In this document: one piece after another, positions 9,592 to 46,689 of the stretch
Layout: the number at the start of each line of letters is the position of its first letter
Position numbering within the stretch: position 1 is the stretch's first letter
NCBI GenBank assembly: GCA_035480235.1
Contig: DATIHX010000008.1
Coordinates: 96,104-160,103 of the forward strand
Direction: 5' to 3'
From: Candidatus Saccharimonadales bacterium
Lineage (GTDB): Bacteria > Patescibacteriota > UBA1384 > 2-12-FULL-50-11
DNA: 64,000 bases
Notes under the pieces: generated by a model
Database searches by the model: none
Told to the model about the DNA's origin: nothing
Seen by the model: only the letters and a program-made list of their open reading frames with translations
Made by a program: the position numbers and the translations under genes

Positions 9592-11856
9592 TTACTCGGT
9601 TTTGGCGACGGCAGCTTCGGTGGCTTCTTTCGTGAAGTCGCAATTAGAGCACTTGAGGCCGTCTTTTTTCTTTAATAGTAAGTGACCGCAGTCGGGGCAC
9701 TTTTCGGTGGTGGGTTCGTCCCAAAAAGCGGTTTTGCAAGCGGGGTAGTTGTTACAGCCCCAGAAAATTTTGCCGCGTTTGGAACGCTTCTTAACTAAAT
9801 CGCCTTTGGCGCAGTTGGGGCATTTGACGCCGGAGCTAACTTCCACGGATTTGGTGTATTTGCACTTCGGGTAGTTGCTGCAGCCAATAAACGTGCCGAA
9901 ACGACTTTGCTTCACAATTAATTCGCCGCCGTCTTCCGGGCATTTCTCTTTAATCATTTCTTGCAGAATTGGGCTGATGGCTTTTTCTTCGCTGCCGCCG
10001 GCCGTGCCCAAAAACGGCTCAGTGTGTTTGCAATCGGGGAAGCCGCTGCAGGCGTAGAACTTACCGAAACGGCCGAGTTTCAGCACGAGCGGCTTACCGC
10101 ACTTTGGGCAGATTTTATCTGTTTCCTCCACCACGTTTTTCTTTTCCAATGTCCCCTCTTTTTCTTTGAGGAGTAACGCAAACGGCTCGTAGAAATCCCG
10201 CAAAACCGGCACCAGCTGTTTGTCGCCATCGGCGATGTCGTCCAGCTCGTCTTCCATTTTGGCAGTGAAGTCATAGTCGATAATAGCCGGGAAGTTTTCT
10301 ACTAGTAAATCGGTGACCACGCCAGCCACGTCTTCCGGCACAAAGCGGCCGGTTTGCTTAGTCACGTAACCGCGGTCAACGATGGTGCTCATAATTGGCG
10401 CGTAAGTGGACGGCCGGCCGATGCCGCGCTTTTCCAGTTCTTTAACCAGCGTGGCTTCGGAATAACGAGCTGGCGGTTCGGTGAAGTGCTGCTCGGTTTC
10501 CATTTTCTTGACCGTCACCTTCTCGCCGGCGGTCATTTTAGGAAGTTTCACAAAACGTTCTTCCGAGTCTGGGTAAACTTTAAGAAATCCGTCAAAAGAC
10601 AGTTCGCGGCCGCGGGCAATTAAATCAATTTTAGCCGAACTGCCAACCCTGACGATGGTATTTTTAACTTCGGCCGGCGTCATCTGCGAGGCCATCGCCG
10701 CTTGCCAAATTAAGGTGTAAAGGCGGGCGTGGTCGCGCTCTAGGCTTTTGCTGGCCACTGCCGGCAGCAAGGCGAAATCGGTTGGGCGGATGGCTTCGTG
10801 GGCTTCTTGGGCGCCGCGAACTTTTTTGGTGAAAGTATTAGGCACGGCGGGTTGGTAGCGCTCACCGTATTGGCTAACAATCTGGGCGCGGGCTTGGGTT
10901 TTAGCAGTGTTCGATAAATTGTACGAATCGGTTCGCATGTAAGTAATTAGACCTTGGGCTGGGCGGCCGTCGACACTCATACCTTCGTAAAGGTCCTGAG
11001 CAATTTTCATTGTCCGTTTGGCGGAAAATCCGAGAACGCGCGAGGCCATCTGCTGCAAAGTGGAGGTAATGAGCGGCGGCGATGGGCGCAGCGTGGTGTT
11101 AGTTTCACTGATGTCGGCCACATTGAAATCGGCGTTTTTCAGTTGGTTTAAGATTTTGTCGACTTCGGCTTTGGTAGCCAGTTCCAACTTGGCGGTGGAG
11201 CCTTCTTTAACAAGCGTGGCCGGGAATTCGCCAGCGGCCGCTTTCAAGATAGCTTCCAATGTCCAGGATTCTTTGGGCACAAAAGCTTTAATTTCCCGTT
11301 CGCGCTCCACCACTAACCGCACGGCCACGCTTTGGACCCGGCCGGCCGATAAGCCGCGGTAAACTTTTTTCCACAGTAGCGGCGAGAGTTTATAGCCAAC
11401 TAAACGGTCTAGGGCTCGGCGGGCTTGTTGAGCATCAACCAGATTTTGATCGATATCTCTGGGGTTAGCTACCGCCTCTTGAACCGCCTGCTTGGTGATT
11501 TCCGAGAAGCTGACTCGGTGAATTTTGGGATTTGGTTTTTGGGGTTTGGTTTTTTCCAGGCCAAGAGCCTGGATAAGATGCCACGCGATCGCCTCGCCTT
11601 CGCGGTCTGGGTCGGGCGCCAGGTAAAGTTCGTCTGCGTCAGCGATATCTTTCTTTAATTCGGCTAGAACTTTTTTTGCCCGGACGATCGGCTGATAGTC
11701 GATGGCGAAGTCGTGATCCACATCGATGCCGAGTTTACTCTTCGGCAAATCGCGGACGTGGCCGAAAGAGGCTTTGACCGTAAAGTCTTTGCCAAGATAG
11801 CCAGCGATGGTTTTGGCTTTGGCAGGAGATTCGACAATAACAAGTTTTTTAGGCAT
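9592..11856 (-). CDS. topA: DNA topoisomerase I
   Basis: Toprim N-terminus, ITYMRTDS active-site region and multiple C-terminal C4 zinc fingers. Confidence 0.97.
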   Translation of the reverse strand: MPKKLVIVESPAKAKTIAGYLGKDFTVKASFGHVRDLPKSKLGIDVDHDFAIDYQPIVRAKKVLAELKKDIADADELYLAPDPDREGEAIAWHLIQALGLEKTKPQKPNPKIHRVSFSEITKQAVQEAVANPRDIDQNLVDAQQARRALDRLVGYKLSPLLWKKVYRGLSAGRVQSVAVRLVVEREREIKAFVPKESWTLEAILKAAAGEFPATLVKEGSTAKLELATKAEVDKILNQLKNADFNVADISETNTTLRPSPPLITSTLQQMASRVLGFSAKRTMKIAQDLYEGMSVDGRPAQGLITYMRTDSYNLSNTAKTQARAQIVSQYGERYQPAVPNTFTKKVRGAQEAHEAIRPTDFALLPAVASKSLERDHARLYTLIWQAAMASQMTPAEVKNTIVRVGSSAKIDLIARGRELSFDGFLKVYPDSEERFVKLPKMTAGEKVTVKKMETEQHFTEPPARYSEATLVKELEKRGIGRPSTYAPIMSTIVDRGYVTKQTGRFVPEDVAGVVTDLLVENFPAIIDYDFTAKMEDELDDIADGDKQLVPVLRDFYEPFALLLKEKEGTLEKKNVVEETDKICPKCGKPLVLKLGRFGKFYACSGFPDCKHTEPFLGTAGGSEEKAISPILQEMIKEKCPEDGGELIVKQSRFGTFIGCSNYPKCKYTKSVEVSSGVKCPNCAKGDLVKKRSKRGKIFWGCNNYPACKTAFWDEPTTEKCPDCGHLLLKKKDGLKCSNCDFTKEATEAAVAKTE

Positions 11857-12779: not shown

Positions 12780-12816
12780 AGCCGGACGAGACAAAATCTC
12801 GCCCGGCTATTTTTTT
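12780..12816. terminator. bidirectional terminator
   Basis: AGCCGGACGAG...CTCGCCCGGCT followed by T7. Confidence 0.75.
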
Positions 12817-13892
12817 AGACAATATTTGCCGGCGTCGTCTTGATGGACGAGCTCTAAAAGTTCCAATTGAGTAACGAGCGCCAGGAGGGTTTCGACCGGT
12901 TGGCTGGTTAGCTCAATTAACTGATCGATAGTCAGCGGTTCAGAGAGATTTTTGACGACAGTTTTGAGCTCAACGGTTAGATCTTCCGTGACGCTCCGCT
13001 TCGAACGCAACCCGTAATAATCGTCGAGTTGCTCGGCGTCGTCCAACAGCATCGCGCCTTTTTTAATTAAGAAATTGGTGCCTTCGGCTTGGTGGCGGGT
13101 GATGTCGCCCGGCACGGCAAAGAGGTCGCGGTTGTAATCGATGACGGATTTAGCAGTGGTCAGGCTGCCAGATTTTATCTTGGCTTCGATGACGACGGTG
13201 GCTGGCGCCAGTCCAGCTAAGATCCGGTTGCGGACCGGGAACTTCCAGGGCGCTGGCCGGTCGAGCGGCGGATATTCGCTAATTAGCGCTCCCCCATTTT
13301 CCACAATTTTATCACTCAAGCGGAAATGGTCGGTTGGGTAGATGGAGTCCAGGCCGCCGGCCAAAACGGCGATGGTTTTGCCATGACATTCCAGCGACCG
13401 TTCGTGGGCGGTTTTGTCGATGCCATAAGCTAAGCCAGAAGCGATGACGATCTTGCTAGCGAGTTTATCACTAAGTAAAGTTTTAACAGCCGCGAGCGCG
13501 TACGAAGACGGCTTGCGCGTTCCGACCACACTTAAAGCTTTTTGATGAGCTATTTTAATATCGCCGCGGTGGTAAAGCCAAAGCGGCGGATCGGGAATTT
13601 CTTTTAATAGTGGCGGATAGTTGGGGTCATCGATAGTAATAAGCTGAATATTTTTCGATTTTAATAGTCGTTCGCTGGCCGAAGTATTGGTTGGCCGGTT
13701 GACCAAAGCGTCGACTTGGCCGTTGGCTAAGCCGAGCTCGCGCCAGCCCATCTCGCCCATATCTAATAGTTCGCGACAGCTGGGAACTTTGGCCCGCAAA
13801 CGATTCCAACTAATCGGCCCCAGCGGTTGCAGCACCCCCAGCGCAATAATTTCCGCTGGCGTAATCCCCTTCAACCAAGCCTTCTTTGCCAT
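12807..13892 (-). CDS. dprA: DNA processing protein DprA/Smf
   Basis: GLAYGIDKTAHE and Rossmann-like DprA core, with a C-terminal winged-helix-like region. Confidence 0.9.
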   Translation of the reverse strand: MAKKAWLKGITPAEIIALGVLQPLGPISWNRLRAKVPSCRELLDMGEMGWRELGLANGQVDALVNRPTNTSASERLLKSKNIQLITIDDPNYPPLLKEIPDPPLWLYHRGDIKIAHQKALSVVGTRKPSSYALAAVKTLLSDKLASKIVIASGLAYGIDKTAHERSLECHGKTIAVLAGGLDSIYPTDHFRLSDKIVENGGALISEYPPLDRPAPWKFPVRNRILAGLAPATVVIEAKIKSGSLTTAKSVIDYNRDLFAVPGDITRHQAEGTNFLIKKGAMLLDDAEQLDDYYGLRSKRSVTEDLTVELKTVVKNLSEPLTIDQLIELTSQPVETLLALVTQLELLELVHQDDAGKYCLKK

Positions 13893-14040: not shown

Positions 14041-14074
14041 TACTACGTTATGCTTTATAAAGCATAACGTAGTA
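14041..14074. repeat. 34-nt perfect palindrome
   Basis: TACTACGTTATGCTTTATAAAGCATAACGTAGTA. Confidence 0.9.
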
Positions 14075-17416: not shown

Positions 17417-18528
17417 GAGGCGAAGACGAATTTTTTGTGGCGGATGTGGATGGATTCGAGGATACCGAGGGCGGCGAGGTCGACGATAATGGCAGTGCCG
17501 CCGTAGGACATGAACGGCAATGGGATACCGGTAACGGGCAGTAGCCCGACGTTAATGCCGATATGAACCACTACTTGAAATAAGAGTTTGGCGGCAATAC
17601 CGATGGCCACGAGCTGGCCGAACGGGTCGGTCGACTCTCGGGCAATCGCCAGCACCCGCAAAATTAAGAAGGCGTAGAGGCCGAGCAGGATCATCGAGCC
17701 GACAAAACCGGTGGCTTCAGCGTAGCCGGCGAAGATAAAGTCGGCGTGCGGCACCGGTAAAAAGTTAAGGACCGTTTGCGAGCCTTGGCCGAAACCGCGG
17801 CCGGTCAGCCCGCCCGAACCGACGGCGATCAGGGCCTGGCGGACGTTATAGCCTTGACCCTCTGGGTCGGAAGCGGGGTTGAGAAATGTTGCGACCCGGT
17901 TTTTTTGGTAGGGCTTGAGGTGTCCCCAGGCCAGTGGGACAGCGACCACGAACAGCGCCGCGATCACGGCGAGCGTTCGCCAGTTCGGCTTGGCCGCTAA
18001 AAACAGGACGAGAAAGATCGTTAACAAGCAACCAGCGGTACCGAGGTCGGGCTGGGCCAGAACCAAACCAAAAGAGGCAACGGCCAGTAAAATATATAGA
18101 GTGGCGGCGCGCCAACTAACCTTGCCAATTCGTCCGCTCAAAAACTTGGCTCCAAAAATAATCGCGATCAGCTTGAAAATTTCGGCCGGCTGGACTTGAA
18201 AAAACCCTAGCGTCAGCCAACGGTGGGCGCCAAAAACCTTCAACACAAACGGCAGATGACTGGCCCACATCGGCAAAAGCGGCAACAGTAAAAGTAGGCC
18301 GATAATAAAGAGGGTTGAACTGACCGAGCCGATCGCCCGGTAGTCCGAGAACATAAAAATCGCCATGAAAACCAGGCCGATAAACGCGTATAGCAGCTGG
18401 CTGAGCGCTAACGAGGCGTGATGAGCAGCAAAGGTAATGGTGTAAATAGTGACGATGCCGGTGAGGAGTAACAAGAGCGGGATGAGAAGGGAGAACCAGT
18501 CAATTGGCAAGCTAAAGAGCTTGCGCAT
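17413..18528 (-). CDS. rodA: SEDS family peptidoglycan polymerase (RodA-like)
   Basis: FtsW/RodA/SpoVE family pattern of 10 TM helices, located outside the dcw cluster. Confidence 0.88.
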   Translation of the reverse strand: MRKLFSLPIDWFSLLIPLLLLLTGIVTIYTITFAAHHASLALSQLLYAFIGLVFMAIFMFSDYRAIGSVSSTLFIIGLLLLLPLLPMWASHLPFVLKVFGAHRWLTLGFFQVQPAEIFKLIAIIFGAKFLSGRIGKVSWRAATLYILLAVASFGLVLAQPDLGTAGCLLTIFLVLFLAAKPNWRTLAVIAALFVVAVPLAWGHLKPYQKNRVATFLNPASDPEGQGYNVRQALIAVGSGGLTGRGFGQGSQTVLNFLPVPHADFIFAGYAEATGFVGSMILLGLYAFLILRVLAIARESTDPFGQLVAIGIAAKLLFQVVVHIGINVGLLPVTGIPLPFMSYGGTAIIVDLAALGILESIHIRHKKFVFAS

Positions 18529-18947
18529 TACAGCTCGCCGTCTAAGGCGAGGTTGCCCAATTCGTCGGCCCGTTGGTTTTGCTCGCGACGGACGTGAACA
18601 AAACTCACCAGGTTATCGGCTTGCTCTAGTTTCATTTTTAATTTTTGAATCGCCTCAAAATGCGGCCGGAGCTCAGCGTTTTTCATTTTGTACTCGCCGT
18701 TCAGCTGCTTGACCATTAGCTCCGAGTCGGCAAAACAGGTAATTTCGTCGCTTCGCGGCGCCAGATCGTTCAGTTTAGTTAAGGCCGCCAGCAACGCTTG
18801 ATATTCGGCCTGGTTGTTGGTGGTGGCGGGAATGGTTTCGGCGTGCTCAATTATATCAGCCGCGGGAATTTCGATGACGTAGGCGATGGCTGCTGGGCCG
18901 GGGTTACCACGAGCGGCGCCGTCGGTGTGGATACGAATTTCAGCCAT
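18528..18947 (-). CDS. rnhA: ribonuclease HI
   Basis: IHTDGAARGNPGPAA...QAEY... RNase H fold motifs. Confidence 0.9.
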   Translation of the reverse strand: MAEIRIHTDGAARGNPGPAAIAYVIEIPAADIIEHAETIPATTNNQAEYQALLAALTKLNDLAPRSDEITCFADSELMVKQLNGEYKMKNAELRPHFEAIQKLKMKLEQADNLVSFVHVRREQNQRADELGNLALDGEL

Positions 18948-18984
18948 TGCTGTACTCTAGCAATTTCGAGCAAAACTCACAATC

Positions 18985-20010
18985 CTACGGAGTGACGTTA
19001 CCGGTTCCCCCATAGACATTAAAGTCGTAGATACTAAGTAAAGTGCCGGATTTGCGGTCGACGGTGGCCAACAGCGTCCGTTTGGTGGCGCCGGCGTAAC
19101 CGGTGGCGGTGATTTTGCTGACGGTGGAATCGAAGTTAACGTTGGCGCTGGTGGTGCCGCTGGAGCTGGTGACGGTGGAAAAGGTGGCGCCGACGCTGCC
19201 CAAATTGTAACAACTGGAGCCGACGCCGCTGGTGCCGAGTGGCCGAATGCGCAAAGTGCTCGCCACGCTGCCGCCGCCGGTACCGCCTCGTATCAGCAAA
19301 TTGGTTCCCTGGGCTGCCGAGTCGTAAGTGGGCTGGCTGCCGATTTGGCTAACGACCACTTGTGGCTGGAATTGAGTGCCGCTACCGTTTTGGTTGATTT
19401 GTTGAATCGTCACCGAGCAGCCGCTGGGGTTGCCGGTCCAGCTGAATTGATAGCGAAGATAATAGTCGTTGGTTGAATCGGGAAAACCGGTTAATTCCAA
19501 GCTGTCGTCTTGGGCGATCGGGCTGGCTAATGTCAGAGCGGCGTTGGTGGTTTTGTAGTCGACTTTCAAGTCGTAGTATTGGTGAACTGGGTTGTAGCCG
19601 CTGGTCGAGGTGATGGTAGTGTTATCCTGAACGTTGCCAACGGCACTGCCGGCGGTTAGGTCGTAGCGCTCAGCAGTACTTAAGACAGCCCCGTTGGTGT
19701 CGCGGCGAATGGTGTCGACGTTGCGGCCGAACCTAAAGCGAACCAAGCCGTCTTCGATGCCGGCTTTGGCGGCGTAATAAGCAGCGACGTTATCTTCGTC
19801 GGCCGACGACTGGCCAAACTGCACCAGCGCCAACCGCTGAACGCCGAGGGTTACCGTGACGATGCCGGCCACCACCAGCATAACGAAAATTAGACTACTC
19901 GCCGAGGATCGGCGAGCAGAATTACTGAATCTTCGAATTACTGAATTACTGATTTTTTCCGGATTTAGTAATTTAGTCATTGAGTTATTACGTAATTCTT
20001 TCTTAGTCAT
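18985..20010 (-). CDS. pilin-like/minor pilin protein with an AT-rich-encoded leader
   Basis: The start is taken at the ATG overlapping the upstream stop (ATGA). N-terminus MTKKELRNNSMTKLLNPEKISNSVIRRFSNS followed by a hydrophobic helix. Confidence 0.6.
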   Translation of the reverse strand: MTKKELRNNSMTKLLNPEKISNSVIRRFSNSARRSSASSLIFVMLVVAGIVTVTLGVQRLALVQFGQSSADEDNVAAYYAAKAGIEDGLVRFRFGRNVDTIRRDTNGAVLSTAERYDLTAGSAVGNVQDNTTITSTSGYNPVHQYYDLKVDYKTTNAALTLASPIAQDDSLELTGFPDSTNDYYLRYQFSWTGNPSGCSVTIQQINQNGSGTQFQPQVVVSQIGSQPTYDSAAQGTNLLIRGGTGGGSVASTLRIRPLGTSGVGSSCYNLGSVGATFSTVTSSSGTTSANVNFDSTVSKITATGYAGATKRTLLATVDRKSGTLLSIYDFNVYGGTGNVTP

Positions 20011-20816
20011 ATTGCTCCCGGCACCACCGTGGTATCTAAAGTGTAACAGGTGCCGGCGCCGAGGGTGGCGCAAGTTTGGGCAGCATCGCCGGCCGGTTTC
20101 AGATCGAAGTGGATTTTGACGTACGGCGAAGCCGTGGCGCTTTTGGCAGCGGCGATGTCGAGACCGCTAAAGACCGGCGTCAGGCCGCCAAGGCCGTCGG
20201 CGACGTAGGCGCTGCTCAACAAGTCGGCCGGGGTGGCTGGTGGGCTGGCCGCCGCACACGGCGCGGTTTGGCTGGCGACCACGGGGTTGCCGCCGCCAAG
20301 TGGGGTGCAAACCGACAAGCCGCGCAACTCGTAGACGTAAACGCTTGGCCGGTTATTGAGGGTTTGGGCGGCGTAGAGGCGCCAAACCAAATCCCCTGCC
20401 CCGGTGGCGCCTGGGTACTTCAACAGCAGTTCGGCTTCGTCACAGCCAAAAGCGTTACCCAACCGAACGCCCGTAAAGATGCTAGCCGGCGAGCCGCAGC
20501 TGCTTTTGAGCGAAGCTGGTTGGTCGACGGTATCCACGTAGTGCAAGTCGTTGGTGAGTTGGTCAGTCACCGACCGAGCGGCTTGAACTTGGGCCCGGAC
20601 GACGTTACTTTGGCTGCTAGAGCTGACCGAACGGGCAAAAGCGGCAATGGCCAGAACGATGAGGCCGGAAAAGATCAGCACCGAGACCAGGAGTTCGATG
20701 AGGGTGTAGGCTCGGCGAGAAGCTCTCGCCGAATGACTAAATCTCTGAATTACTGAATTACTGAGTCTATTTAGTAATTTAGTAATTTCGTAATTTCGTA
20801 ATTTTTTTCTGATCAT
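20007..20816 (-). CDS. type IV pilin-like protein (pseudopilin)
   Basis: 36-aa leader, then YTLIELLVSVLIF. ATGA overlap with the upstream gene. Confidence 0.75.
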   Translation of the reverse strand: MIRKKLRNYEITKLLNRLSNSVIQRFSHSARASRRAYTLIELLVSVLIFSGLIVLAIAAFARSVSSSSQSNVVRAQVQAARSVTDQLTNDLHYVDTVDQPASLKSSCGSPASIFTGVRLGNAFGCDEAELLLKYPGATGAGDLVWRLYAAQTLNNRPSVYVYELRGLSVCTPLGGGNPVVASQTAPCAAASPPATPADLLSSAYVADGLGGLTPVFSGLDIAAAKSATASPYVKIHFDLKPAGDAAQTCATLGAGTCYTLDTTVVPGAI

Positions 20817-21640
20817 TGCCCGCTCCCCCCGGTGCCAAAGTTGGCGCCACTGAATCCAGCCGTTTGCTCAAAGCCTTTCCAGTTGGTGAGTAATGTTGCC
20901 ACGTCGGCGACGGTGAAGCCGGTTTTATTGCTTGTAACAACCACCGAGCGAACTTTGACGGCGTTGCCGGCCGGGATGATGGTGGGGCTGTTGGTAGCAA
21001 CGCTGGAGAGTTCGTCGCGATTAAGACTGGCTTGAGTGTTGGTGCAGTAGTTGTTAGCGCTGTCGCAAGGGGCGGTGGTGTGCGAGCGGTCGCCGTCGCT
21101 GGCGATCGCTGAGCCGCCGGCGCTAGTGTTACAGCTATCGGTGGTGGCGTCCCGCCGGGTAACAGCCCCGACCGACTCCAGGCAAATCAGGCGAAAAGCC
21201 GTCAGCGACTGGCTGGTTTTGGCTTCGCTATTGGTGTTGTTAAGGGTAGTAAAATCGATGGTATTGCCCAGACCAGTGGCTTTAGTGAGCGCCCAATTGT
21301 TACCGTTTTGGCTTAACGTGTACCAGCCGTAATTAGCCGGGTCGGTGGCTTCGTTGAGCCAAATTGAGTTATTGCCGTCGTTGTTGCCCGCCAGTAAATT
21401 ATCGTCGCGATGAGCGGCGGTGAGCTCCAACCCCTCGCTGGCCCAACGGTTGAGAATGGTGACATCGGCGTTAACGGCTGTCCCCCGGATAATTGAGTTG
21501 TTGAGGCCAACAATCGCCCCGGAAACGATAAATAAGATACCCCCGGCAATTAGTACTTCCAACAACGTGAAACCCTTCTTAGAATTACTAAATAACTTAA
21601 TTTTAGTAATTTTATTATTTAGTAATTTTCTTATTGCCAT
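20813..21640 (-). CDS. type IV pilin-like protein
   Basis: MAIRKLLNNKITKIKLFSNSKKG then FTLLEVLIAGGILF. Confidence 0.8.
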   Translation of the reverse strand: MAIRKLLNNKITKIKLFSNSKKGFTLLEVLIAGGILFIVSGAIVGLNNSIIRGTAVNADVTILNRWASEGLELTAAHRDDNLLAGNNDGNNSIWLNEATDPANYGWYTLSQNGNNWALTKATGLGNTIDFTTLNNTNSEAKTSQSLTAFRLICLESVGAVTRRDATTDSCNTSAGGSAIASDGDRSHTTAPCDSANNYCTNTQASLNRDELSSVATNSPTIIPAGNAVKVRSVVVTSNKTGFTVADVATLLTNWKGFEQTAGFSGANFGTGGSGQ

Positions 21641-21651
21641 TTAGTCATTAC

Positions 21652-22335
21652 CTAGTTATAGGTTGAAGTTATTTTACCGGTAAAATTATCTACATTAACT
21701 GTGGCGGTGCGGCCGTTGAAAGTCAATTGGAAAAGCGGATGAGTAAAATTGGTGATGGTATCAACCTGCCAGCTCTTGCCAACTTTGCTGAAGCTGGTCA
21801 GCTGCTTGATCGGGGCTTTGAACGCCACCACGGCCGAGCTGGCCGACTGGTTAGCGAGGCTGTCGCCGCCCGAAAGTTGATCCTGTTCAACCAAGCAGCT
21901 ACTCGAAGTGGCGGCGGCGTTGATGCCGCAACTGCCGCCGTTCAAATCGGTAGAGAGCTTAACGATCCGGTAGCTGGTTTGCCCGCTCCCCGGGGCGATG
22001 AGTAGGGCGTAATAGGTGCTGTCTGGGTCGGCTTGAAAGTTTGAACTACCCGAAGAAAGCTGGGTAGAACCGGCCAGCAGCCGGACGTACTCAATTTTAC
22101 TTTCTAGCAAGGTGACGTCGTCGGCCAGACGATTAACAGAAAGTGACCGCGAGACATTAGTCACCAAGATGCCGGTTAACAGGCCAATAATGGCGATGGT
22201 GATTAATAACTCGACCAGAGTAAAAGCCCGCTTGCGAGGGAATATCGAATATCGAATTTCGAATTTCGAAACAAATCCAAAATACAAATTCTTAAATTTC
22301 GGATTTCGGATTTCGGATTTCGGATTTTCTTTCAT
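21652..22335 (-). CDS. type IV pilin-like protein
   Basis: The start ATG overlaps the pilD stop (ATGA). 37-aa leader MKENPKSEIRNPKFKN...RKRA followed by FTLVELLITIAIIG. Confidence 0.8.
   Translation of the reverse strand: MKENPKSEIRNPKFKNLYFGFVSKFEIRYSIFPRKRAFTLVELLITIAIIGLLTGILVTNVSRSLSVNRLADDVTLLESKIEYVRLLAGSTQLSSGSSNFQADPDSTYYALLIAPGSGQTSYRIVKLSTDLNGGSCGINAAATSSSCLVEQDQLSGGDSLANQSASSAVVAFKAPIKQLTSFSKVGKSWQVDTITNFTHPLFQLTFNGRTATVNVDNFTGKITSTYN
22240..22323 (-). repeat. two heptanucleotide tandem repeats inside the pilin leader coding region
   Basis: (GAATWTC)x4 at 22240-22267 and (ATTTCGG)x4 at 22296-22323. Confidence 0.9.
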
Positions 22336-23108
22336 AGCCCCATCCCCCCAAGGTACCAAGCGATAGCCGTGGTTCCCCAAAAAAGGGCGAGCAGGCCGCC
22401 GATAATCAGGAACGGCCCAAAGGGCACGGCGGTTTTCAGTTTAGCCCGTTTGGTTAAGAGTAAAATCGCCCCAAAAACGCCGCCGATCACAAAAGCCAAT
22501 GAGACAAAAACAATGGCGTTCGGGTAACCGGCCAGTAACCCTAGGCCGGCGGCTAGCTTCAAGTCGCCCTCGCCCATCCAGGTGCCGCGGCTGGGGTAAA
22601 CCAGGAGCGCCACCGGCAGAAAACCAATCAGTGCCCCGTACAAACTGTGCAATGGGTTCTGGTAGTACAAAAGCGAAAAAATGGCGGCGCCAAAAAGCAA
22701 AACGTAGGCAAAAAAGTCCGGGATCAACATCTCTTTAAGGTCGTGGAAAAACATCACTACCAAAGCGCCAATAGCGACGATAAAAGCGATGAAAGCGCCA
22801 ATTTGGGAGGCGAGGGTTAAGCTGGAAGTATTGAAAATTAAAAAGTAGCCGCCGGCCAGCAAAAAAGCCGTGGCAGTTTCCACTACCGGGTACTGCCAGG
22901 AAATTGGCCGGCCGCAGTAACGACAGCGGCCTTTGAGGGTGGCGTAACTAATAACCGGGATCAGGTCGTACCATCTTAAATCGGTGCGGCAGTCTGGGCA
23001 GTGGGAGCGACCGGTTAAAATGGTCCGCCACTCGTCAAAGCGCAAAATCACCACGTTCAAGAATGAGCCGAAGACTAAGCCGAAAACAAAAGCGACGATT
23101 CCCCCCAT
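22332..23108 (-). CDS. pilD: prepilin peptidase (A24 family)
   Basis: CPDC...RCRYC zinc motif, multi-TM, aspartyl peptidase A24 pattern. Confidence 0.93.
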   Translation of the reverse strand: MGGIVAFVFGLVFGSFLNVVILRFDEWRTILTGRSHCPDCRTDLRWYDLIPVISYATLKGRCRYCGRPISWQYPVVETATAFLLAGGYFLIFNTSSLTLASQIGAFIAFIVAIGALVVMFFHDLKEMLIPDFFAYVLLFGAAIFSLLYYQNPLHSLYGALIGFLPVALLVYPSRGTWMGEGDLKLAAGLGLLAGYPNAIVFVSLAFVIGGVFGAILLLTKRAKLKTAVPFGPFLIIGGLLALFWGTTAIAWYLGGMGL

Positions 23109-23197
23109 ACTTCATTCATAGTAACAGTTTTAGGCGCCGAGCAAAGGAGGGATTATCCCACTTTCAATTTTCCTTAATCGATAGATTCAATTCTACT

Positions 23198-23221
23198 AAA
23201 GGCAGGGTTTCCCCTGCCTTT
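23198..23221 (-). terminator. terminator after pilA
   Basis: AAAGGCAGGG-TTTC-CCCTGCCTTT. Confidence 0.75.
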
Positions 23222-23288
23222 AGAGTTTTTCAATGAAGTTGAAAAACTATTGCGGACCGCGATGCGGGACGCAAAGAGCCTGAAATCT

Positions 23289-23855
23289 CTATTGCGGACC
23301 GTAAACGACCCAAGCTCGGACGTTGTTACCCATAGTGGTTAACTGATACGCCGCGCCGTTACCTGGCGTTACTGTACCGGTCGCGCCGGCCAAGTACTCA
23401 CCGTTACCGGTGGCGACTGTGCCTTCCGTGCCGTTCTGCAAAGCCGCGGCCGCCGCATAGTTGGTGGTCGTAGCGTTCGAGGTGTATTTGGCGGTGTTGT
23501 AGCCAGTAAACACCTGCGAAGTCGCGCCGCCGGTGACGTACGAAGCCAAACAAGCGCCCAGCGTTACCCCAGCGTTGGCGCAGTTGGAAACCGTGCCGCC
23601 GTTGATGTTGACGCCGTTAGCCGCCGCCGTTGGGTAGGCCCCGGTCGTTTGATCGGAGTAGTACTGCTCCAACGTAGTCGAGAGCGTGCGCAAGTTATTC
23701 TTGGTTTGAGTGTCGGCGGCTCGCAGACGAGCACCGGTCAGCGAAGTAATAATCAACGCCGCCAAGATACCGATAATGGCGATGACGACGAGCAATTCAA
23801 TTAACGTAAACCCGCGCCGGCCAACCAAAGCAAAACCTTTTTTCATCTTATTCAT
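23289..23855 (-). CDS. pilA: type IV major pilin
   Basis: MNKMKKGFALVGRRG then FTLIELLVVIAIIGILAAL. It has its own promoter and terminator. Confidence 0.9.
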   Translation of the reverse strand: MNKMKKGFALVGRRGFTLIELLVVIAIIGILAALIITSLTGARLRAADTQTKNNLRTLSTTLEQYYSDQTTGAYPTAAANGVNINGGTVSNCANAGVTLGACLASYVTGGATSQVFTGYNTAKYTSNATTTNYAAAAALQNGTEGTVATGNGEYLAGATGTVTPGNGAAYQLTTMGNNVRAWVVYGPQ

Positions 23856-23939
23856 TGTTTCTCCTTTAAAGACTCATGAAGATTCAGCTTTCGTCGACCG
23901 CCCCTCTCGCAAACTATACCGGTGAAAGCCATTAACCTT

Positions 23940-23968
23940 ACTATCACCTGCCACATAATGGCTGTCAA
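23940..23968 (-). promoter_or_regulatory. pilA promoter
   Basis: Minus strand reads TTGACA, 17 nt, GATAGT. Confidence 0.6.
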
Positions 23969-23987
23969 GGTGACGCGGGAAAAAGCG

Positions 23988-25064
23988 TTATTGAATGACG
24001 CTGGAAAGGTTGTAGATCGGCACGATGATGGAGAAGATCAAGAACGCCACGCCGAGGCCGACAATCACAAAGACGATCGGCTCGACCAGCGCCGAGATAT
24101 TTTTAATCTGTTGGTTGGTTTGGGCTTCGTAGAAGTCGGCCAATTTTGATAAGACCTGTTCGAGTTTGCCGGTTTTTTCGCCGGCGGCGACCATTTCGGT
24201 GATGGCCGCTGGAAATTCGGGGAATTTGGCTAAGGTTTGGGAGATCGGGGCGCCGCGCTCGACGTTGCGGGCCACCACTAAGAGAGCGTCGCGGTAGACG
24301 ACGCTGTCGAGCACCAACGCCACCGAATCGAGGGCCGTAATAATCGGCACGCCGGCCGAGATCATAATGCCCAGAATCCGGGTGAAGCGGGCCATTTCCA
24401 AAGAAACGAACATCCCGCCGAAAACCGGAATTTTAATGACCCAAGTATTAATAAAACGCTGACCTTCTTCGCTCCGGACAAAGCGGATAATTAAGTAAAT
24501 TAATATTCCCAGGCCGATAATATAGAGGTACCAGTAGGCGATCAGCGAATTGGTCAGCGCTACGACCGTCCGGGTGGTCCAGGGCAAGGTGGCGTGGCTT
24601 TGTTTGAAGACTACTTCGAGGGCTGGGACGATCTTGGTGACCATAATAATGCCAACGAAAAACATCGCCACAATAATGAAAGCTGGGTAGAGTAAGGCCC
24701 CCAAAACTTTCGAGCGGAAGCCATAATCGCGCTCCAGTTCGTCGGCTAAGAGACCTAAAGCAACGTCGAGTTTACCCGAGGCTTCGCCGGCCGCCACCAC
24801 CGAAACAAAAACGTGATTGAAAACTTTTGGATGTTTTTGGATGGCATCGGAGAATTTGTAGCCGTTTTCCAAATCAGCGACGATCGCCGTTAAGGCCGTT
24901 TGAACGGCTTTGTTTTGCGACTGCTCGGCCAGCGAACGGGTGGCTTGGGCTAGCGGCAAGCCGGCATCCAGCATCACCGCCAGTTGCCGAGCCACAAACG
25001 ACCGATCCGACGCCGGCACCGTGCCCAAAATATTGGCAATAGACAGGCTTTGGGTCTGGGCCAC
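23988..25064 (-). CDS. pilC: type IV pilus platform protein (GspF/PilC family)
   Basis: Two GspF-like repeats with three TM helices. GTG start. Confidence 0.93.
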   Translation of the reverse strand: MAQTQSLSIANILGTVPASDRSFVARQLAVMLDAGLPLAQATRSLAEQSQNKAVQTALTAIVADLENGYKFSDAIQKHPKVFNHVFVSVVAAGEASGKLDVALGLLADELERDYGFRSKVLGALLYPAFIIVAMFFVGIIMVTKIVPALEVVFKQSHATLPWTTRTVVALTNSLIAYWYLYIIGLGILIYLIIRFVRSEEGQRFINTWVIKIPVFGGMFVSLEMARFTRILGIMISAGVPIITALDSVALVLDSVVYRDALLVVARNVERGAPISQTLAKFPEFPAAITEMVAAGEKTGKLEQVLSKLADFYEAQTNQQIKNISALVEPIVFVIVGLGVAFLIFSIIVPIYNLSSVIQ

Positions 25065-25129
25065 TAGAAATCTCCGATTTCTAGAATTACTAAATTACTG
25101 AATTTTTCCGGATTTAGTAATTTAATCAT
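25064..25129 (-). other. 21-codon AT-rich mini-ORF whose stop overlaps the pilC start (TAGTG)
   Basis: MIKLLNPEKFSNLVILEIGDF*. The nucleotide module is shared with the pilin leaders. Confidence 0.4.
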
Positions 25130-25197
25130 TTTGCGAAGTGATAACAGAGCGAATGTAAATGGATAATACATTTAGTAATTTAGTAATTATTTCCTCG

Positions 25198-26265
25198 TTA
25201 GTAGACCATCATCTTGAAGGCTTTCGGGTCGATCGCCCAAGCCAGCGCCGTGTCGATGGTAATCTCGCCGCGACTGACTAATTCGGCTAAGACTTTATCG
25301 AGGGCGATCATCCCTTCAGAGGCCGAGGTCTGAATAATGTTGGGTAGTTGGTGAGTCTTGCCTTCGCGGATGGTGTTACGAACGGCTGAGTTGGCCACCA
25401 TAATTTCGGTGGCCAGCACCCGCCCGCCCTGAACTTTCGGCAACAAACGCTGCGAGACCACGCCCAAAAGGACGTTAGCGAGTTGCATCCGCACTTGCAT
25501 TTGTTGATGCGGCGGGAAAACGTCGATAATTCGGTCGGCGGTTTGGGCGGCCGAGTTGGTGTGTAAAGTAGTGAACACCAGGTGGCCGGTTTCAGCCAGG
25601 GTTAAGGCGGCTTCGATGGTTTCCAAATCGCGCATCTCGCCCACTAAAACCACGTTCGGGTCCTCGCGCAAGGCGCTGCGCAAAGCCCGGCTGAAGGAAT
25701 TGGTATCAACGCCAACTTCTCGCTGAACGACGATCGACTTTTGATGCTCAAAAACGTACTCGATCGGGTCTTCGATGGTAATAATGTGTTCGGCCCGGGT
25801 TTGGTTGATATGCTCCACCAGCGCCGCCAAGGTGGTGGATTTGCCGTGACCGGTTGGGCCGGTAATGATCACAAAACCCTGGCTGGGCTCGGCAAAGCGC
25901 TCGAGAATTGGCGGCACGCCGAGTTGTTCCATCGTTTTAATGGCCACTGGAATCAGCCGCAGCGCCGCCCCGATGTTGCCCTTTTGGTAAAAAGCGTTGG
26001 TTCGGAAGCGCATCTTTTGGTAACCGAATGAAAAATCCAGCTCCCGCCGGGTAGTCAGCCGCTCTGTTTGCTCCGGCGTCATAATGCTGGAGAGTAGCCG
26101 TTCGGCCGTTTCGGCGGTCAGGACGCCTTGGTCGGTCAGCGCCAACAGCCGGCCGTCAACTCGCAAAATCGGTGGCGTCCCCACCGTGATATGTAAATCC
26201 GAAGCGTTTTTCTCGACCGCTAAGTCGAGTAAACTTTTCATCTGGGCAGTCAAAGCTTCAGCCAT
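25198..26265 (-). CDS. pilT: twitching motility ATPase PilT
   Basis: GPTGHGKST Walker A, 355 aa, PilT family. Confidence 0.95.
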   Translation of the reverse strand: MAEALTAQMKSLLDLAVEKNASDLHITVGTPPILRVDGRLLALTDQGVLTAETAERLLSSIMTPEQTERLTTRRELDFSFGYQKMRFRTNAFYQKGNIGAALRLIPVAIKTMEQLGVPPILERFAEPSQGFVIITGPTGHGKSTTLAALVEHINQTRAEHIITIEDPIEYVFEHQKSIVVQREVGVDTNSFSRALRSALREDPNVVLVGEMRDLETIEAALTLAETGHLVFTTLHTNSAAQTADRIIDVFPPHQQMQVRMQLANVLLGVVSQRLLPKVQGGRVLATEIMVANSAVRNTIREGKTHQLPNIIQTSASEGMIALDKVLAELVSRGEITIDTALAWAIDPKAFKMMVY

Positions 26266-26428
26266 TGTTAATTCCCTCCATGCTTATTCCCATCGTACAA
26301 TAAATAATTTTCATCGGCGAATCTGCCAACATTACAAATATCCAATAACCAATAATCAAGTAGCAAGGATTGAATATTAATTATTTGATTATTATTTGAA
26401 TATTGACTATTGATTATTGAAAATTTTT

Positions 26429-28903
26429 TCATTCGGTCGTTCCTGGTACTTCTTTAATCGAGGTCATGGTGACGCGCATCACTTCATCCACCGTCGTTAA
26501 GCCCTTGAGGGCTTTCATCAAGCCGTCTTGGACCATCGTCACCATGCCGTTTTTGATCGCCGCTTTCTGCAGCTCCGAGGCCGGGGCTTTCTTGACGGCC
26601 AAGTTTTCGATTTCTTCGTTCATCGCCATAACTTCGAAGATACCCACCCGGCCGCGGAAGCCATCGGTGCAGTTCGGGCAGCCTTTGCCGTGGTAGAAAA
26701 CCAGTTGCTCCAGATCCACCGCCTTCAACTGGCCGCTCGGCACGGCCGCCAATTCCCGTTGAGCCCGGGCCAACACCGCCGGCGGCACCGCCACTTTTTC
26801 CCGGCAGTCTTCGCAAATCCGCCGCACCAACCGCTGGCCGATGACGGCGTTTAACGACGAAGTGATGAGGAACGGCTCGATGCCCATATCGATCAAGCGC
26901 GGCAGCGCCCCCGAGGCTTCGTTGGTGTGAAGGGTGGAAAGCACCAAGTGGCCGGTCAGGGCCGCCTGGGTAGCCATCGCCGCCGTTTCCAAATCGCGGA
27001 TTTCGCCGACCATAATGACATTCGGGTCTTGGCGCAGCACCGAGCGCAAACCTTCGGCAAAAGTAAAGCCGATCTGCGGCATCACCTGGGCTTGGTTCAA
27101 ACCTGGCAGCTCGTACTCTACCGGGTCTTCCAGGGTAATAATGTTGACGCCGGGGCGGGAGATGCGCGTTAAAATGGAGTAAAGCGTGGTCGATTTACCG
27201 CTACCGGTCGGGCCGGTAGAGAGGATAATGCCGTACGGCTTGGCGATGTTTTTAATTAAGACGTCGAAGTTCGAGCCGGTCAGGCCCAACTGCTCCAGCG
27301 TTTGCATGCCCTCGGATTTATCCAGCAAGCGCATCACCACTTTTTCGCCGTGAATGGTCGGCAAGGTGGAAACCCGCAAATCGACTTGCCGTTTATCCAG
27401 CACCACATCAAACCGGCCGTCTTGCGGCACCCGGCTCTCGTCGATTTTCATTTTGGAGAGGATCTTAATGCGGGCGATGAGCGGCGCGTGCAAAAAGCTC
27501 GGCGCCTTAACGATGTCGTGCAAAATGCCGTCGATCCGGTAACGAATCCGCAAGTACTCTTTTTCGGTTTCCAGGTGGACGTCGCTGGCCCGCATCCGGA
27601 TGGCTAAGAACAGCACCGCTGCCACTACTTCCGGCACCATGCCGGTTTTGAAGACTTCGGCCAAATCAGCGGTGGAAGTGACTGGTTTTTTGATCAATTT
27701 ATCGAGGTCTTGGTCTTCCAATGAGGCCTGCTGGGCCTCGGCCATCCGGGCCAGCTCCTTCACCGACTCGGCTGTTGGCCGGTTGACGATATCGCCAGCC
27801 GTTAAGGTGACCAATGTTTGCTCGCCGGCGGCTGGCGGTTGGCTTTCACTCCTTAAAATCGGCGACGGGGTGGCCGAAGCTGGCACGGTTTCGCCGGTGG
27901 CAGCGCCTGGCGGGGCACCGGCCGTTTCCGCCAGAGGCGCGGCCGAAGGCAGCGCGCTTGGTGGTTGTTCGACCTGGCGAGCCGGATGGTAATACTTGGC
28001 TTCGGGGTAGAGCTTGAGCGCCGCTTCAAAAGAGGCCGTCGTCGTGCGGTAGCGGTCGATCAGCAGTTTGTTCCGGTTTTCGATGTAGGCCAAAATTTCT
28101 TTGACGTGGAGGCTCTCGGGTTCCACCATCGCCACTTTAATCATCGGCGGCTCGAATGGCCCGGGGTGGCGGCTGGCGTCAAAAACAATCAGTTGGTACC
28201 GTTTGGCTACCGCGTAAGGGATTTGGTTGAGAGTGGCCGGCGGAATTGCTTGGCCAGTTAAATCAATGGTTTTACCGACGCCTTCGACGGTTTTATGGAG
28301 CTCGGAATGTGCCGGCGTCGCGGCGATTGGCAGGCTTTTGGGCGGGGCCGGCGGAAGCGGCAGAATGTCGAGCGGAGCCGGTTTCAACTCGGCCGCTGGT
28401 TGGTCGTAGGCTTTAATCACCACCGCCTCGGCGTCGCCCGGCGGCACCACCACCAATTTAATATGGAGGCCTTTTTCTTTGCGCAGCCGCACCAACGCCC
28501 CCGGGGCGTCGCGCTGCAACAGCGCCGGGTCGGTAACGGCCAGGGTCAAAACGGCATTTTTCAGCTCGAAGGGTAGCACCTTATAGCGTTCGATCGCCTC
28601 GCGCGGCAAGAGCTTGACCACGCTGGGGTTAATCGGCCGGTCAACTAACCGTTCAAACGGTAAGCCAAAAAATTCGGCCAAGAGCTCCAAGAGCGGCTGC
28701 GGCTCAACCAGCCGGTGGTGCAGAATATAGGCGCGAATTTCGGCGATGGTTCGGCCGTGCAAAACTTGCCGGAAGCCGGGTTTCAGCAGCCCTTTTTCCA
28801 CCAAAAAATTCAGCAAACTCCGGGCAGAAGCGCTGGCTGGGGCGGAGAGATCGCCGGGCCGCGCTACCTTGTCCTCAACCGGTAAGTGGGTGTTGGCCGG
28901 CAT
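26429..28903 (-). CDS. pilB: type IV pilus assembly ATPase PilB/GspE with a long N-terminal extension
   Basis: GPTGSGKST, tetracysteine CEDC...CPNC, N-terminal GspE_N-like domains and a Pro/Ala-rich linker. Confidence 0.93.
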   Translation of the reverse strand: MPANTHLPVEDKVARPGDLSAPASASARSLLNFLVEKGLLKPGFRQVLHGRTIAEIRAYILHHRLVEPQPLLELLAEFFGLPFERLVDRPINPSVVKLLPREAIERYKVLPFELKNAVLTLAVTDPALLQRDAPGALVRLRKEKGLHIKLVVVPPGDAEAVVIKAYDQPAAELKPAPLDILPLPPAPPKSLPIAATPAHSELHKTVEGVGKTIDLTGQAIPPATLNQIPYAVAKRYQLIVFDASRHPGPFEPPMIKVAMVEPESLHVKEILAYIENRNKLLIDRYRTTTASFEAALKLYPEAKYYHPARQVEQPPSALPSAAPLAETAGAPPGAATGETVPASATPSPILRSESQPPAAGEQTLVTLTAGDIVNRPTAESVKELARMAEAQQASLEDQDLDKLIKKPVTSTADLAEVFKTGMVPEVVAAVLFLAIRMRASDVHLETEKEYLRIRYRIDGILHDIVKAPSFLHAPLIARIKILSKMKIDESRVPQDGRFDVVLDKRQVDLRVSTLPTIHGEKVVMRLLDKSEGMQTLEQLGLTGSNFDVLIKNIAKPYGIILSTGPTGSGKSTTLYSILTRISRPGVNIITLEDPVEYELPGLNQAQVMPQIGFTFAEGLRSVLRQDPNVIMVGEIRDLETAAMATQAALTGHLVLSTLHTNEASGALPRLIDMGIEPFLITSSLNAVIGQRLVRRICEDCREKVAVPPAVLARAQRELAAVPSGQLKAVDLEQLVFYHGKGCPNCTDGFRGRVGIFEVMAMNEEIENLAVKKAPASELQKAAIKNGMVTMVQDGLMKALKGLTTVDEVMRVTMTSIKEVPGTTE

Positions 28904-45667: not shown

Positions 45668-45733
45668 TCAATAAAGAATTATTAAATTACTGAATTTTTG
45701 AATTACAAAATTAGAATTGAGTAATTTAGTCAT
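45668..45733 (-). other. 21-codon AT-rich mini-ORF ending 1 nt before the argS ATG
   Basis: MTKLLNSNFVIQKFSNLIILY*. The module is shared with the pilin leaders. Confidence 0.4.
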
Positions 45734-45822
45734 TGAGTTATTTAGTAATTTGGCCAGGCGGAATTGATCGTACCGACTAAACAACAACCCCAGTATATTC
45801 TTCACTTAGCCAATCAGCAACA

Positions 45823-46689
45823 CTATTGCCCGACGTAGTAATTGTATGGTCCAGGATTGGTGGTACCGCCACCACCACCGCCCGTGTCCGGTACGCAAAC
45901 GCCGTTAACCAAGATTTGGCCGACTGGGCAGCTGGTGGTACCGCCGCCCCCACCGCCGCCATCGCAAGTTGTTGTGCCGTCGGGGTTAACGTGGCAAGTC
46001 CCGCCTCCCACTTGAGCGTGGGCAACAGTGGCAAAAAGCCCACCTGGCGGTAAAATCGTGATATAGTTTGTTGCTATTTTCACCCCGCTAGCGCTACGTG
46101 AAATAACATGTTGATCGCAGTCATAGGGCTGGCCGCCAAAGCTGGCGATCCAAACGTGGCTGAGGCGAACGCACTCCAGCTGGTCGGCGCTGCCGGCGGC
46201 GAATTGGTGTTCCAGCGATGTTGTCAAACGATAGTGTTTGGCCACGGCCGCTACAGAAGCGGCCCCGCTGGTTTCGGTAGTTGAAAGGTTGAAATAATAG
46301 GAAAAGGTCGGCGAGCGAACGTCGTTGGGAATAGTCGGCAGGTAATGGCTGAAGGTGCCGCAGCCATCGCTGTAGGAGGCTAATTGGCTGGTTTTTGTCC
46401 AAACCAGTGTTGGGCTGGGGTTGAGGCCACCGCCCGGGTAAACGCCAACGGCTGATTGATCGCTACAGGTTTTATCCAACTGCCGGGCGCTAAAAGCTTG
46501 AGCGATTTGGTTTAAATCGGATTTACGCACCGCGTCGCGGGCTTGCGCCTGGGCTTGAGCGTAAACGTAGGTGCCCAGCGCCAAGAGTATGCCGATGATG
46601 GCGATAACAGCCAGCGACTCAATGAGAGTAAAGCCGCGACGAGCATGATTGGAGATCAGTGATTTAGGGCTTAGAATCTTAAGCTGCAT
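45823..46689 (-). CDS. type IV pilin-like protein with a Gly/Thr/Cys-rich C-terminus
   Basis: MQLKILSPKSLISNHARRG then FTLIESLAVIAIIGILLAL. GGGGGGTT repeats near the C-terminus. Confidence 0.85.
   Translation of the reverse strand: MQLKILSPKSLISNHARRGFTLIESLAVIAIIGILLALGTYVYAQAQAQARDAVRKSDLNQIAQAFSARQLDKTCSDQSAVGVYPGGGLNPSPTLVWTKTSQLASYSDGCGTFSHYLPTIPNDVRSPTFSYYFNLSTTETSGAASVAAVAKHYRLTTSLEHQFAAGSADQLECVRLSHVWIASFGGQPYDCDQHVISRSASGVKIATNYITILPPGGLFATVAHAQVGGGTCHVNPDGTTTCDGGGGGGGTTSCPVGQILVNGVCVPDTGGGGGGTTNPGPYNYYVGQ

Follow-up and report, generated by a model that had tools for sequence, protein, structure and literature searches.

Paired heptamer arrays in the leader of a minor-pilin gene of a Candidatus Saccharimonadales bacterium, and similar arrays at other gene junctions

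The stretch of DNA analyzed here (hereafter the window; 64,000 nucleotides (nt) of contig DATIHX010000008.1 of a Candidatus Saccharimonadales bacterium) carries a type IV pilus operon whose genes all lie on the minus strand, namely pilB, pilT, pilC, the major pilin gene, pilD and four minor-pilin-like genes, p1-p4. The subject of this study is a pair of arrays of tandem 7-nt units in the leader of p1, the segment that the prepilin peptidase PilD is predicted to remove. The anatomy of this element, its insertion in frame, the translation through its arrays, its membership of a class of junction arrays and the occurrence of that class in other genomes are documented below; an effect on translation or mRNA is one that we infer.

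The p1 leader and its arrays

Period-7 arrays were called by Tandem Repeats Finder (TRF). The features at the 5' end of p1 are as follows (aa, amino acids).

21652..22335, minus strand: p1, minor (pseudo)pilin gene, 227 aa, with Pfam N_methyl domain
22225..22335, minus strand: leader-peptide coding region of p1, 37 codons, ending RKRA and followed by FTLVE; its ATG overlaps the pilD stop codon (ATGA)
22296..22327, minus strand: array 1, sense (AAATCCG) x4.6 with identical units, codons 3-14 of the leader; TRF period 7, 100% matches
22268..22295, minus strand: spacer between the arrays, 28 nt or exactly 4 x 7 nt, by direct reading
22240..22270, minus strand: array 2, sense (TTCGAAA)x2 (TTCGATA)x2 TTC, codons 22-32 of the leader; TRF 4.4 copies, 95% matches
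22332..23108, minus strand: pilD, prepilin peptidase gene (Pfam A24_N_bact, 1.6e-32; Peptidase_A24, 1.2e-14), coupled to p1 by the overlap

An earlier, sequence-only reading had proposed heptanucleotide tandem repeats inside the leader of the pilin gene 21652..22335. TRF bore this out, with each array extending a few bases past the ends first given for it, and both arrays lie within codons 3-32 of the 37-aa leader (MKENPKSEIRNPKFKNLYFGFVSKFEIRYSIFPRKRA, then the cleavage site and FTLVELL). The periodic peptide NPKSEIRNPK, which the repeats had been said to encode, is also what translation gives. The arrays begin 8 nt past the ATG that overlaps the pilD stop. On the plus strand, array 1 reads as ATTTCGG units and array 2 as GAATATC x2 followed by GAATTTC x2. 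The spacer, read directly on the sense strand, resembles decayed complementary units of the ATTTCGG type (ATTTAAG AATTTGT ATTTTGG ATTTGTT). The two arrays match at 6/7 positions as direct repeats and at only 5/7 as inverted repeats, because the array unit (GAATTTC on the plus strand) is nearly palindromic. The 4 x 7-nt spacer, the near-palindromic unit, the better direct match and six further sites with a like architecture, described below, are additions to the earlier reading.

No array of period 7 or 8 with at least 4 units and at most 1 mismatch appeared in second-order Markov simulations of the window (0/200). The unit of array 1 was found nowhere else in the window, nor in the non-identical loci that were fetched for comparison; the heptamer units of the element as a whole were common to no other window site or fetched locus, so that the family consensus typical of dispersed palindromic repeats is absent. 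The identity of the array 1 units and the 2+2 pattern of array 2 indicate recent slippage or conversion.

The assignment of p1 as a prepilin gene is supported by the Pfam N_methyl domain (PF07963) at aa 34-57, which scored 30.7 bits against a cut-off of 21.2 bits, by the N-methylation and cleavage motif RKRA/FTLVE (the slash marks the cleavage site here and below), and by the adjoining pilD and assembly genes. A start codon (ATG or GTG) overlapping the pilD stop is kept in 5/5 syntenic loci (the window and L014-L017), and because this overlap is conserved in all of them, the upstream ATG was taken as the true start of p1. The starts of p3 and p4 overlap the preceding stops in the same way, and the three genes after p1 are tightly coupled, with an 11-nt gap followed by two ATGA overlaps; a polar effect of a p1 frameshift on these genes is plausible from this arrangement. 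Synteny of the pilus genes is kept in L015-L017, and a metagenome-assembled genome (MAG) of Candidatus Saccharimonadales (GCA_964636455.1, L001) is identical to the window.

Comparison with orthologues was used to place the arrays in the history of the gene. Six p1 orthologues are 54-81% identical over the mature protein, in a match that spans only 85% of the query, and the leader is not conserved among them: it measures 4-8 aa in four, 14 aa in one and 47 aa in P0003 (L015), where it differs from that of p1 and is built of 8-mer arrays. The closest orthologue (L014, 81% identical) has the 6-aa leader MTSRRA/FTL, relative to which p1 has 31 additional codons in frame. At the p1 5' end, no arrays were found in L014 and none in L017; at the same place L015 carries an 8-mer pair (AATTACTA x3.9 and AATTCAGT x4.6) and L016 carries only AAATCGGAAAGCGGAAAC, possibly a two-unit vestige. 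For p2-p4, inflated leaders occur only in the window and in L015, the others being short, and the inserts of these two genomes recur at the same junctions with different units. The more distant Saccharimonadia (L004, L005, L007 and L012) have ordinary short leaders, and the arrays are hence not universal. Judged from these comparisons, short leaders are the ancestral state of p1-p4, and the p1 arrays are a lineage-specific in-frame insert of 31 codons (93 nt) in the segment removed by PilD. The orthologues differ in the presence or absence of the insert, and not in its number of units.

Arrays at other junctions and in phage contigs

A laxer periodicity scan detected 8 arrays in the window where the null model predicts ~0.03, and all of them lie in the pilus operon or beside a second pilin-like gene. 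Arrays are found at 6/9 junctions of the pilus operon. The sites other than the p1 leader are listed here (ORF, open reading frame; uORF, upstream ORF).

21578..21640, minus strand: 8-mer array hairpin in the p2 leader (23 aa); TRF, fold z -4.3, alignment A2
20730..20812, minus strand: 8-mer array pair in the p3 leader (36 aa), AAATTACG/T x4.5 and TCAGTAAT x2.5 plus degenerate units
19912..20002, minus strand: 8-mer array pair in the N-terminal extension of p4; TRF, fold, alignment
25078..25140, minus strand: 8-mer hairpin in the pilT-pilC spacer; it lies within a relay uORF of 35 aa (25064-25171) that ends in a stop overlapping the GTG of pilC
26337..26425, minus strand: array hairpin of period 7 in the spacer between pilB and pilT, within a bridging ORF of 54 aa (26268-26432); fold z -4.2
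45672..45755, minus strand: 8-mer hairpin located between argS and the second pilin-like gene (45823..46689), within an ORF of 45 aa (45668-45805)

In the 16 pairs compared, the inverted-repeat match averages 0.85 between partner arms and 0.55 between non-partners, and the unit sequences are unrelated from pair to pair. The 8-mer elements form a dispersed family of the form (AAATTACT)n, loop, (AGTAATTC)n, with copies at the five 8-mer sites of the window and in L015 (6006-6130); the p1 proteins of these two species share 73% identity. These neighbours of the p1 element do have a family consensus: the copies share irregular units, and two of them share the loop AAATCCGGAAAAA (alignment A2), from which it follows that the 8-mer elements spread by copying.

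Arrays of this kind were also detected in other genomes and contigs. A genome scan anchored on PilD, which returned only relatives with at most 39% identity, led to an unrelated Patescibacteria MAG (L006) holding pairs with wholly different units (TAGAAGT/CTTCTAA, TAGGTCTG/TACAGACC, AGAGATC/GATCTCC and AGCCAGT/CTACTGG) that sit in minor-pilin leaders and untranslated spacers alike. Matches from a metagenome scan with the orthologue alignment proved to be generic pilin N-termini and not orthologues, and were used as an unbiased pilin sample. In this pilin-anchored sample, one contig (L088) shows the architecture of the p1 element in a 36-aa pilin leader. In L095, one arm lies in the 5' untranslated region (5'-UTR) and the other in the leader, and the pair thereby brackets the ribosome-binding site and the ATG. 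Another metagenome contig, the GC-rich L051 (2008-2211), has intergenic arrays of (GTCAGAA) x11.7 facing (CTGACCT) x13.1; therefore, copy number is not always ~4.

A search of IMG/VR with the exact 21-mer made of three units of array 1 returned 24 viral stretches (L102-L125), ~19 of them distinct, with GC contents of 33%-67%. These phage contigs carry (AAATCCG) x3.3-4.7 in an array that always measures 23-33 nt. Altogether the viral loci hold 66 period-7 arrays in 190 kb, or ~4 per 10 kb, with many unit sequences and with period 7 dominant. Copy number clusters at 4.3-4.6 among the viral arrays that had not been queried; array length has its mode at 30-32 nt. About 73% of the viral arrays fall at gene boundaries, even though mechanically called ORFs take up ~90% of these loci. 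A complementary partner is present for some of the arrays. No clear rule of orientation, sense-strand composition or distance was found for the phage arrays upstream of starts. The narrow 30-32-nt mode points to a length-constrained structural element and not to a free-running slippage tract. Viral matches to the 8-mer pattern came mostly from AT-rich giant-virus MAGs and are probably low-complexity background.

Some further observations concern the pilus operon and the rest of the window. The leader of the major pilin (23289-23855, minus strand) contains a duplicated cleavage-like motif, MNKMKKGFALVGRRG/FTLIELL (KKGFALV then RRGFTLI), that is kept in four species (L015 4474-5043, L016 3878-4507, L017 4524-5075 and the window). 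A 12-bp GC-rich palindromic hairpin (23196-23223) between the major pilin gene and pilD could be a terminator or attenuator, and a promoter-like TTGACA-17-GATAGT lies upstream of the major pilin gene (23940-23968); from their positions, the two would give the usual high expression of the major pilin and low expression of the minor pilins. A DprA gene (12807-13892) lies ~5 kb from the operon, which is consistent with a DNA-uptake pilus. The hairpins at 6330-6426 (after cysS) and 26337-26425 (pilB-pilT spacer) share TTGAATATTGG(T)TATT and may be a second small repeat family. Perfect palindromes without a spacer occur at 54760-54799 (20+20 nt) and 14041-14074 (17+17 nt). The array at 11523-11554 is a period-7/14 coding repeat in topoisomerase I (KTKPQKPNPK-like) and was set aside as unrelated to the junction arrays.

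Translation and folding of the arrays

Each coding array pair leaves exactly one frame open, and this is the frame in use, so the arrays are predicted to be translated. The heptamer units of the p1 element are free of stop codons in all three frames. An 8-mer array cycles through all three frames every 24 nt, and therefore AAATTACT and AGTAATTT would unavoidably give an in-frame TAA or TAG; direct reading of the 8-mer units showed them to be altered precisely at these would-be stops (AAATTACG; TCAGAGAT; TTAGTCAT). Similarly, the p3 unit of L006 is GATCTCC and not GATCTCT, which avoids TGA. Stop-codon avoidance accounts for the periodic A.C mismatch in the coding hairpins.

The copies of the window that would appear to be intergenic sit in short bridging ORFs, each keeping one open frame. 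The 54-aa ORF begins at the pilB stop and ends 3 nt short of pilT, and the 45-aa ORF ends 2 nt before the argS ATG. Relay ORFs at pilB-pilT and pilT-pilC are present in all four species without peptide conservation, and their positions outside the window are the following.

L015: 1879-2040 and 3139-3216, relay ORFs
L016: 1198-1254 and 2404-2475, relay ORFs
L017: 2142-2207 and 3319-3372, relay ORFs

The small ORFs of the pilB-pilT spacer were also considered as conserved proteins, and this was rejected as they show no peptide similarity between species, L015 included. The relay ORFs that end at the pilC start codon have only a C-terminal LEIGDF or LEMGDF before the stop in common. This ending coincides with a 9-bp hairpin (25064-25084) in which a GGAG Shine-Dalgarno sequence occupies or adjoins the loop, the TAG/GTG overlap lying at the end of the hairpin. 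Relay ORFs that end at the pilC start suggest an operon run by translational coupling, and the operon as a whole appears, from its gene layout, to be built on such coupling, with the arrays placed in translated linkers.

Array 1 together with the spacer (22266-22335, minus strand) folds into a hairpin with its base at the AUG, at -16.6 kcal/mol (z -2.60; 1/200 shuffles as good). Array 2 alone folds no better than shuffles (z -1.1) and adds little. Folding of the plus strand of the element, antisense to p1, is marginal (z -2.0 to -2.3), reaching -27 kcal/mol. Most array pairs fold as opposite arms of one hairpin, with fold z from -2 to -4.8 in the window, from -3 to -5.6 in L015 and from -7.4 to -8.8 in L006; the L015 hairpins take in the start codons of p3 and p4, in either loop or stem.

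Related systems, explanations and meaning

Judged by analogy, the closest known kind of element would be the short tandemly repeated repetitive sequence (STRR) of cyanobacteria. STRRs usually consist of 7-bp repeats that form hairpins between co-transcribed genes, as in hupS-hupL, and roles in transcript stability or translational coupling have been proposed for them without their function having been settled (PMC2670836). The title of Vioque 1997, as cited in PMC4046671, also reports STRRs inside the RNase P RNA gene. The likeness lies in tandem 7-bp units of varied sequence and, for most of the pairs described here if less clearly for the p1 element, in hairpins at gene junctions; the p1 element has 7-nt units in few copies, AT-enriched and variable from site to site, at a co-directional gene boundary. 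The differences are that the present arrays occur in Saccharimonadales, other Patescibacteria and phage contigs, that the p1 element lies in a leader which is translated and then cleaved, that copy number stays close to 4.4, and that 8-nt units occur too. Since the units are short and variable, homology is hard to infer, and the two are likened by architecture.

Two systems offer mechanistic precedents in which repeats and a hairpin lie near the 5' end of adhesin or pilus genes. In Haemophilus influenzae, the (ATCTTTC)n repeat of the hmw1A 5'-UTR contributes one arm to a long RNA hairpin, through which expression is controlled (PMC12721329). The 7-nt unit at or upstream of the 5' end of an adhesin gene resembles the p1 element, whereas the hmw1A tract is untranslated, has at least 11 units and pairs with a non-repeated G-rich region as its right arm; documented copy-number variation and RNase III dependence are its own. 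In pil1 of Streptococcus gallolyticus, GCAGA repeats in a leader peptide lie before a stem-loop whose structure is controlled by ribosome passage (PMC3894217). There too non-triplet repeats occur in a translated leader upstream of pilus genes; pil1 differs in having a separate leader-peptide ORF, a transcription terminator, a sortase-dependent pilus and switching that was demonstrated experimentally. In Neisseria, the (CTCTT)n of opa and the poly-G of pilC are non-triplet repeats in signal-peptide coding regions; they are single tracts with many units, high variation between strains and frequent OFF alleles. The likeness, which agrees with the model of the sequence-only reading, is a non-triplet repeat in the cleaved leader of a surface-structure gene; in p1 the arrays are paired, have ~4 units and are in frame in all alleles.

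In-frame palindromic inserts also have a precedent. Rickettsia palindromic elements insert in frame and are translated, RNase III cleaves transcribed Correia elements, and such small palindromic repeats, once transcribed, alter mRNA processing or stability (PMC10969869). The 8-mer elements of the window resemble these elements and the enterobacterial repetitive intergenic consensus in behaving as a dispersed family. The known families differ in that their members measure ~100-150 bp, conserve a family sequence and lack tandem periodicity internally, and the units of the p1 element are unique in the window. Literature searches returned no account of such arrays in Patescibacteria, prepilin leaders or phages.

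The explanation that we favor, with confidence evenly divided for and against, is a composite one: an STRR-like, slippage-built insert lies in frame in a disposable leader, belongs to a set of junction elements and has a plausible cis role in mRNA fate or translational coupling. A young element grown by slippage would have inserted into the leader of the first minor-pilin gene after pilD, and would be tolerated there because PilD cleaves off this segment, which could accept nearly any stop-free sequence. It would be one of a class with 7-8-nt units repeated ~4 times, ~30 nt per arm, usually with a complementary partner to form a hairpin, and this class would have colonized the translated junctions of the pilus operon in this Saccharimonadales lineage, both prepilin leaders and relay ORFs. 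Array 1 would pair with its decayed complement in the hairpin based at the AUG and act in cis on the mRNA, and initiation of p1 would then need ribosomes arriving from pilD and/or local mRNA stability would be altered. As part of this composite, and at the same even strength, the p1 element would not be a dedicated phase-variation device, although slippage built it over evolutionary time.

Several observations weigh against this explanation. Neither the closest orthologue (L014, 81% identical) nor L016 or L017 carries the element, which is therefore dispensable for pilus function. It forms the weakest hairpin of the set, its arrays matching at only 5/7 as inverted repeats compared with the class mean of 0.85; the whole region folds no better than shuffles on the sense strand (z -1.1 to -1.4), and only the sub-hairpin of array 1 and spacer stands out. 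A perfectly complementary unit, CGGATTT, would contain no stop codon, and the poor pairing between the arrays is therefore not accounted for by coding constraint. Additionally, the antisense strand folds as well or better in nearly all 15 pairs examined (window, L015 and L006), for example at 45672-45755 with -8.1 (sense) and -18.9 kcal/mol (antisense). Much of the better antisense folding in coding copies follows from stop-codon avoidance, but this avoidance covers the coding copies only and not the untranslated spacer pairs of L006.

A neutral or selfish passenger is possible and, in our judgment, somewhat unlikely. By this account the element is a by-product of slippage, template switching or palindrome copying that is kept where it is harmless, as in a cleaved leader or in a relay ORF that is not conserved, with no effect on expression. 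The patchy distribution among close relatives and the poor complementarity of the p1 arms are in line with it, as is the spread of the 8-mer family by copying, and Rickettsia palindromic elements offer a precedent for in-frame palindromic inserts (PMC10969869). Every seemingly intergenic copy of the window keeps an open frame, as if only stop-free inserts survive in a coupled operon. A harmless passenger fits less well with the strong concentration of arrays at pilus-gene junctions, the recurrence of inserts, built of different units, at matching junctions of the window and L015, the complementarity of arms maintained across unrelated units, and the narrow ~30-32-nt mode in phages and bacteria. 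These four features suggest constraint, some of which could be yielded by a requirement for propagation.

A bolder reading extends the composite to a widespread, length-controlled cis class at cistron boundaries in Patescibacteria and many phages, made up of heptamer or octamer arrays of ~30 nt that mostly have a complementary partner and so far described only as cyanobacterial STRRs; we put it forward very tentatively, as rather unlikely to hold in full. Its members would be register-degenerate hairpins that only a translating ribosome opens, enforcing coupling or setting mRNA fate; where genes overlap, they would be forced into translated leaders like that of p1, where selection would keep them stop-free, perhaps with low-frequency frameshift switching.

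The sequence-only reading had taken the arrays as a switch, in which slipped-strand mispairing would flip p1, and by polarity p2-p4, off and on. Phase variation of p1 is possible, and its frameshift logic stands: the unit is not a multiple of 3, simulations that add or remove a single unit of array 1 or array 2 leave an ORF of 16-61 aa, and the loss of one unit in array 1 with the gain of one in array 2 restores the frame. No in-frame ATG, GTG or TTG occurs between array 2 and the cleavage site, the sole alternative start being a TTG at codon 17, between the arrays. The perfectly homogeneous array 1, which implies recent slippage, and the coupled downstream genes also speak for a switch, and repeats in the leader regions of pilus and adhesin genes have precedent (PMC3894217, PMC12721329).

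The switch is less easily reconciled with the tract lengths and alleles. The arrays have 4.4 and 4.6 units, against a natural minimum of eleven for the hmw heptamer (PMC12721329). All array-bearing pilin leaders are in frame (12/12, a small sample from five genomes or contigs). Contingency genes, by contrast, are often met in the OFF state. Neither the available assemblies nor a search of 5.8 billion proteins yielded a variant allele; the comparison of copy number across related assemblies that the sequence-only reading had called for gave agreement between the window, GCA_964636455.1 and the Logan contigs of SRR9179560, which are probably one dataset, so that the identity of the species' only assemblies probably does not amount to independent observations. 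Furthermore, the same arrays occur where frame is irrelevant, in non-coding junctions and phages, with a narrow range of copy number.

The Logan contigs (k=31, SRR9179560) bear on the switch from both sides. Contig L002 ends at 22302 and L100 starts at 22323, both inside array 1, and the contigs run unbroken through three 8-mer array pairs; the break could reflect copy-number heterogeneity among reads, sequencing stutter or low coverage, and as the contigs are short, low coverage is an adequate cause. The break points do not fit a simple mixture of two alleles, since 3 versus 4 units predicts ends at 22303/22320 and 4 versus 5 units predicts 22298/22325. Altogether, a dedicated switch is improbable.

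An element acting at the level of DNA or antisense RNA is more improbable again. This would be a protein-binding array, or a plus-strand structure in an antisense RNA or single-stranded DNA, and it draws on the better folding of the plus strand in the p1 element (-27 kcal/mol, z -2.3 compared with z -1.1) and in most pairs. The only Rfam match over 18500-27000 at E<=1, a chance match to mir-1290, was also a plus-strand hairpin, at 28 bits against a cut-off of 82 bits and thus far below threshold. Against such an element, the unit sequences are unrelated between instances, which leaves no common recognition sequence, and avoidance of stop codons accounts for the strand asymmetry of the coding copies. 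A promoter and terminator scan gave counts no higher than in shuffled sequence, and the arrays were rejected as intrinsic terminators or promoters. A period of 7-8 bp also does not match the helical repeat of DNA.

Finally, a longer tandem repeat collapsed by assembly to about k-mer length could account for array lengths near 31 nt, a common k-mer size, and for the Logan break, but we consider this very improbable indeed, given that 12/12 leaders are in frame where a collapse removing whole units of 7 nt would preserve the frame only one time in three, that variant units follow a 2+2 pattern in array 2, that assemblies from different pipelines agree, and that the k-mers behind IMG/VR and NCBI assemblies far exceed 31 in length.

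For annotation, the caution is that a long, odd prepilin leader, or a small hypothetical ORF lying between pilus genes, can turn out to be a translated repeat element. Finding a non-triplet repeat in a leader does not in itself count as evidence for phase variation. Should the arrays act on mRNA, these streamlined, regulator-poor episymbionts would set the ratio of minor to major pilins by means of disposable RNA hairpins, placed in a coding segment that is discarded. The wider pattern may matter more, namely heptamer arrays of ~4.4 units and narrow lengths in Patescibacteria and many phage contigs. Heptamer arrays have long been a curiosity of heterocystous cyanobacteria, used for decades in strain fingerprinting, and the pattern described here could make STRR function testable in other systems.

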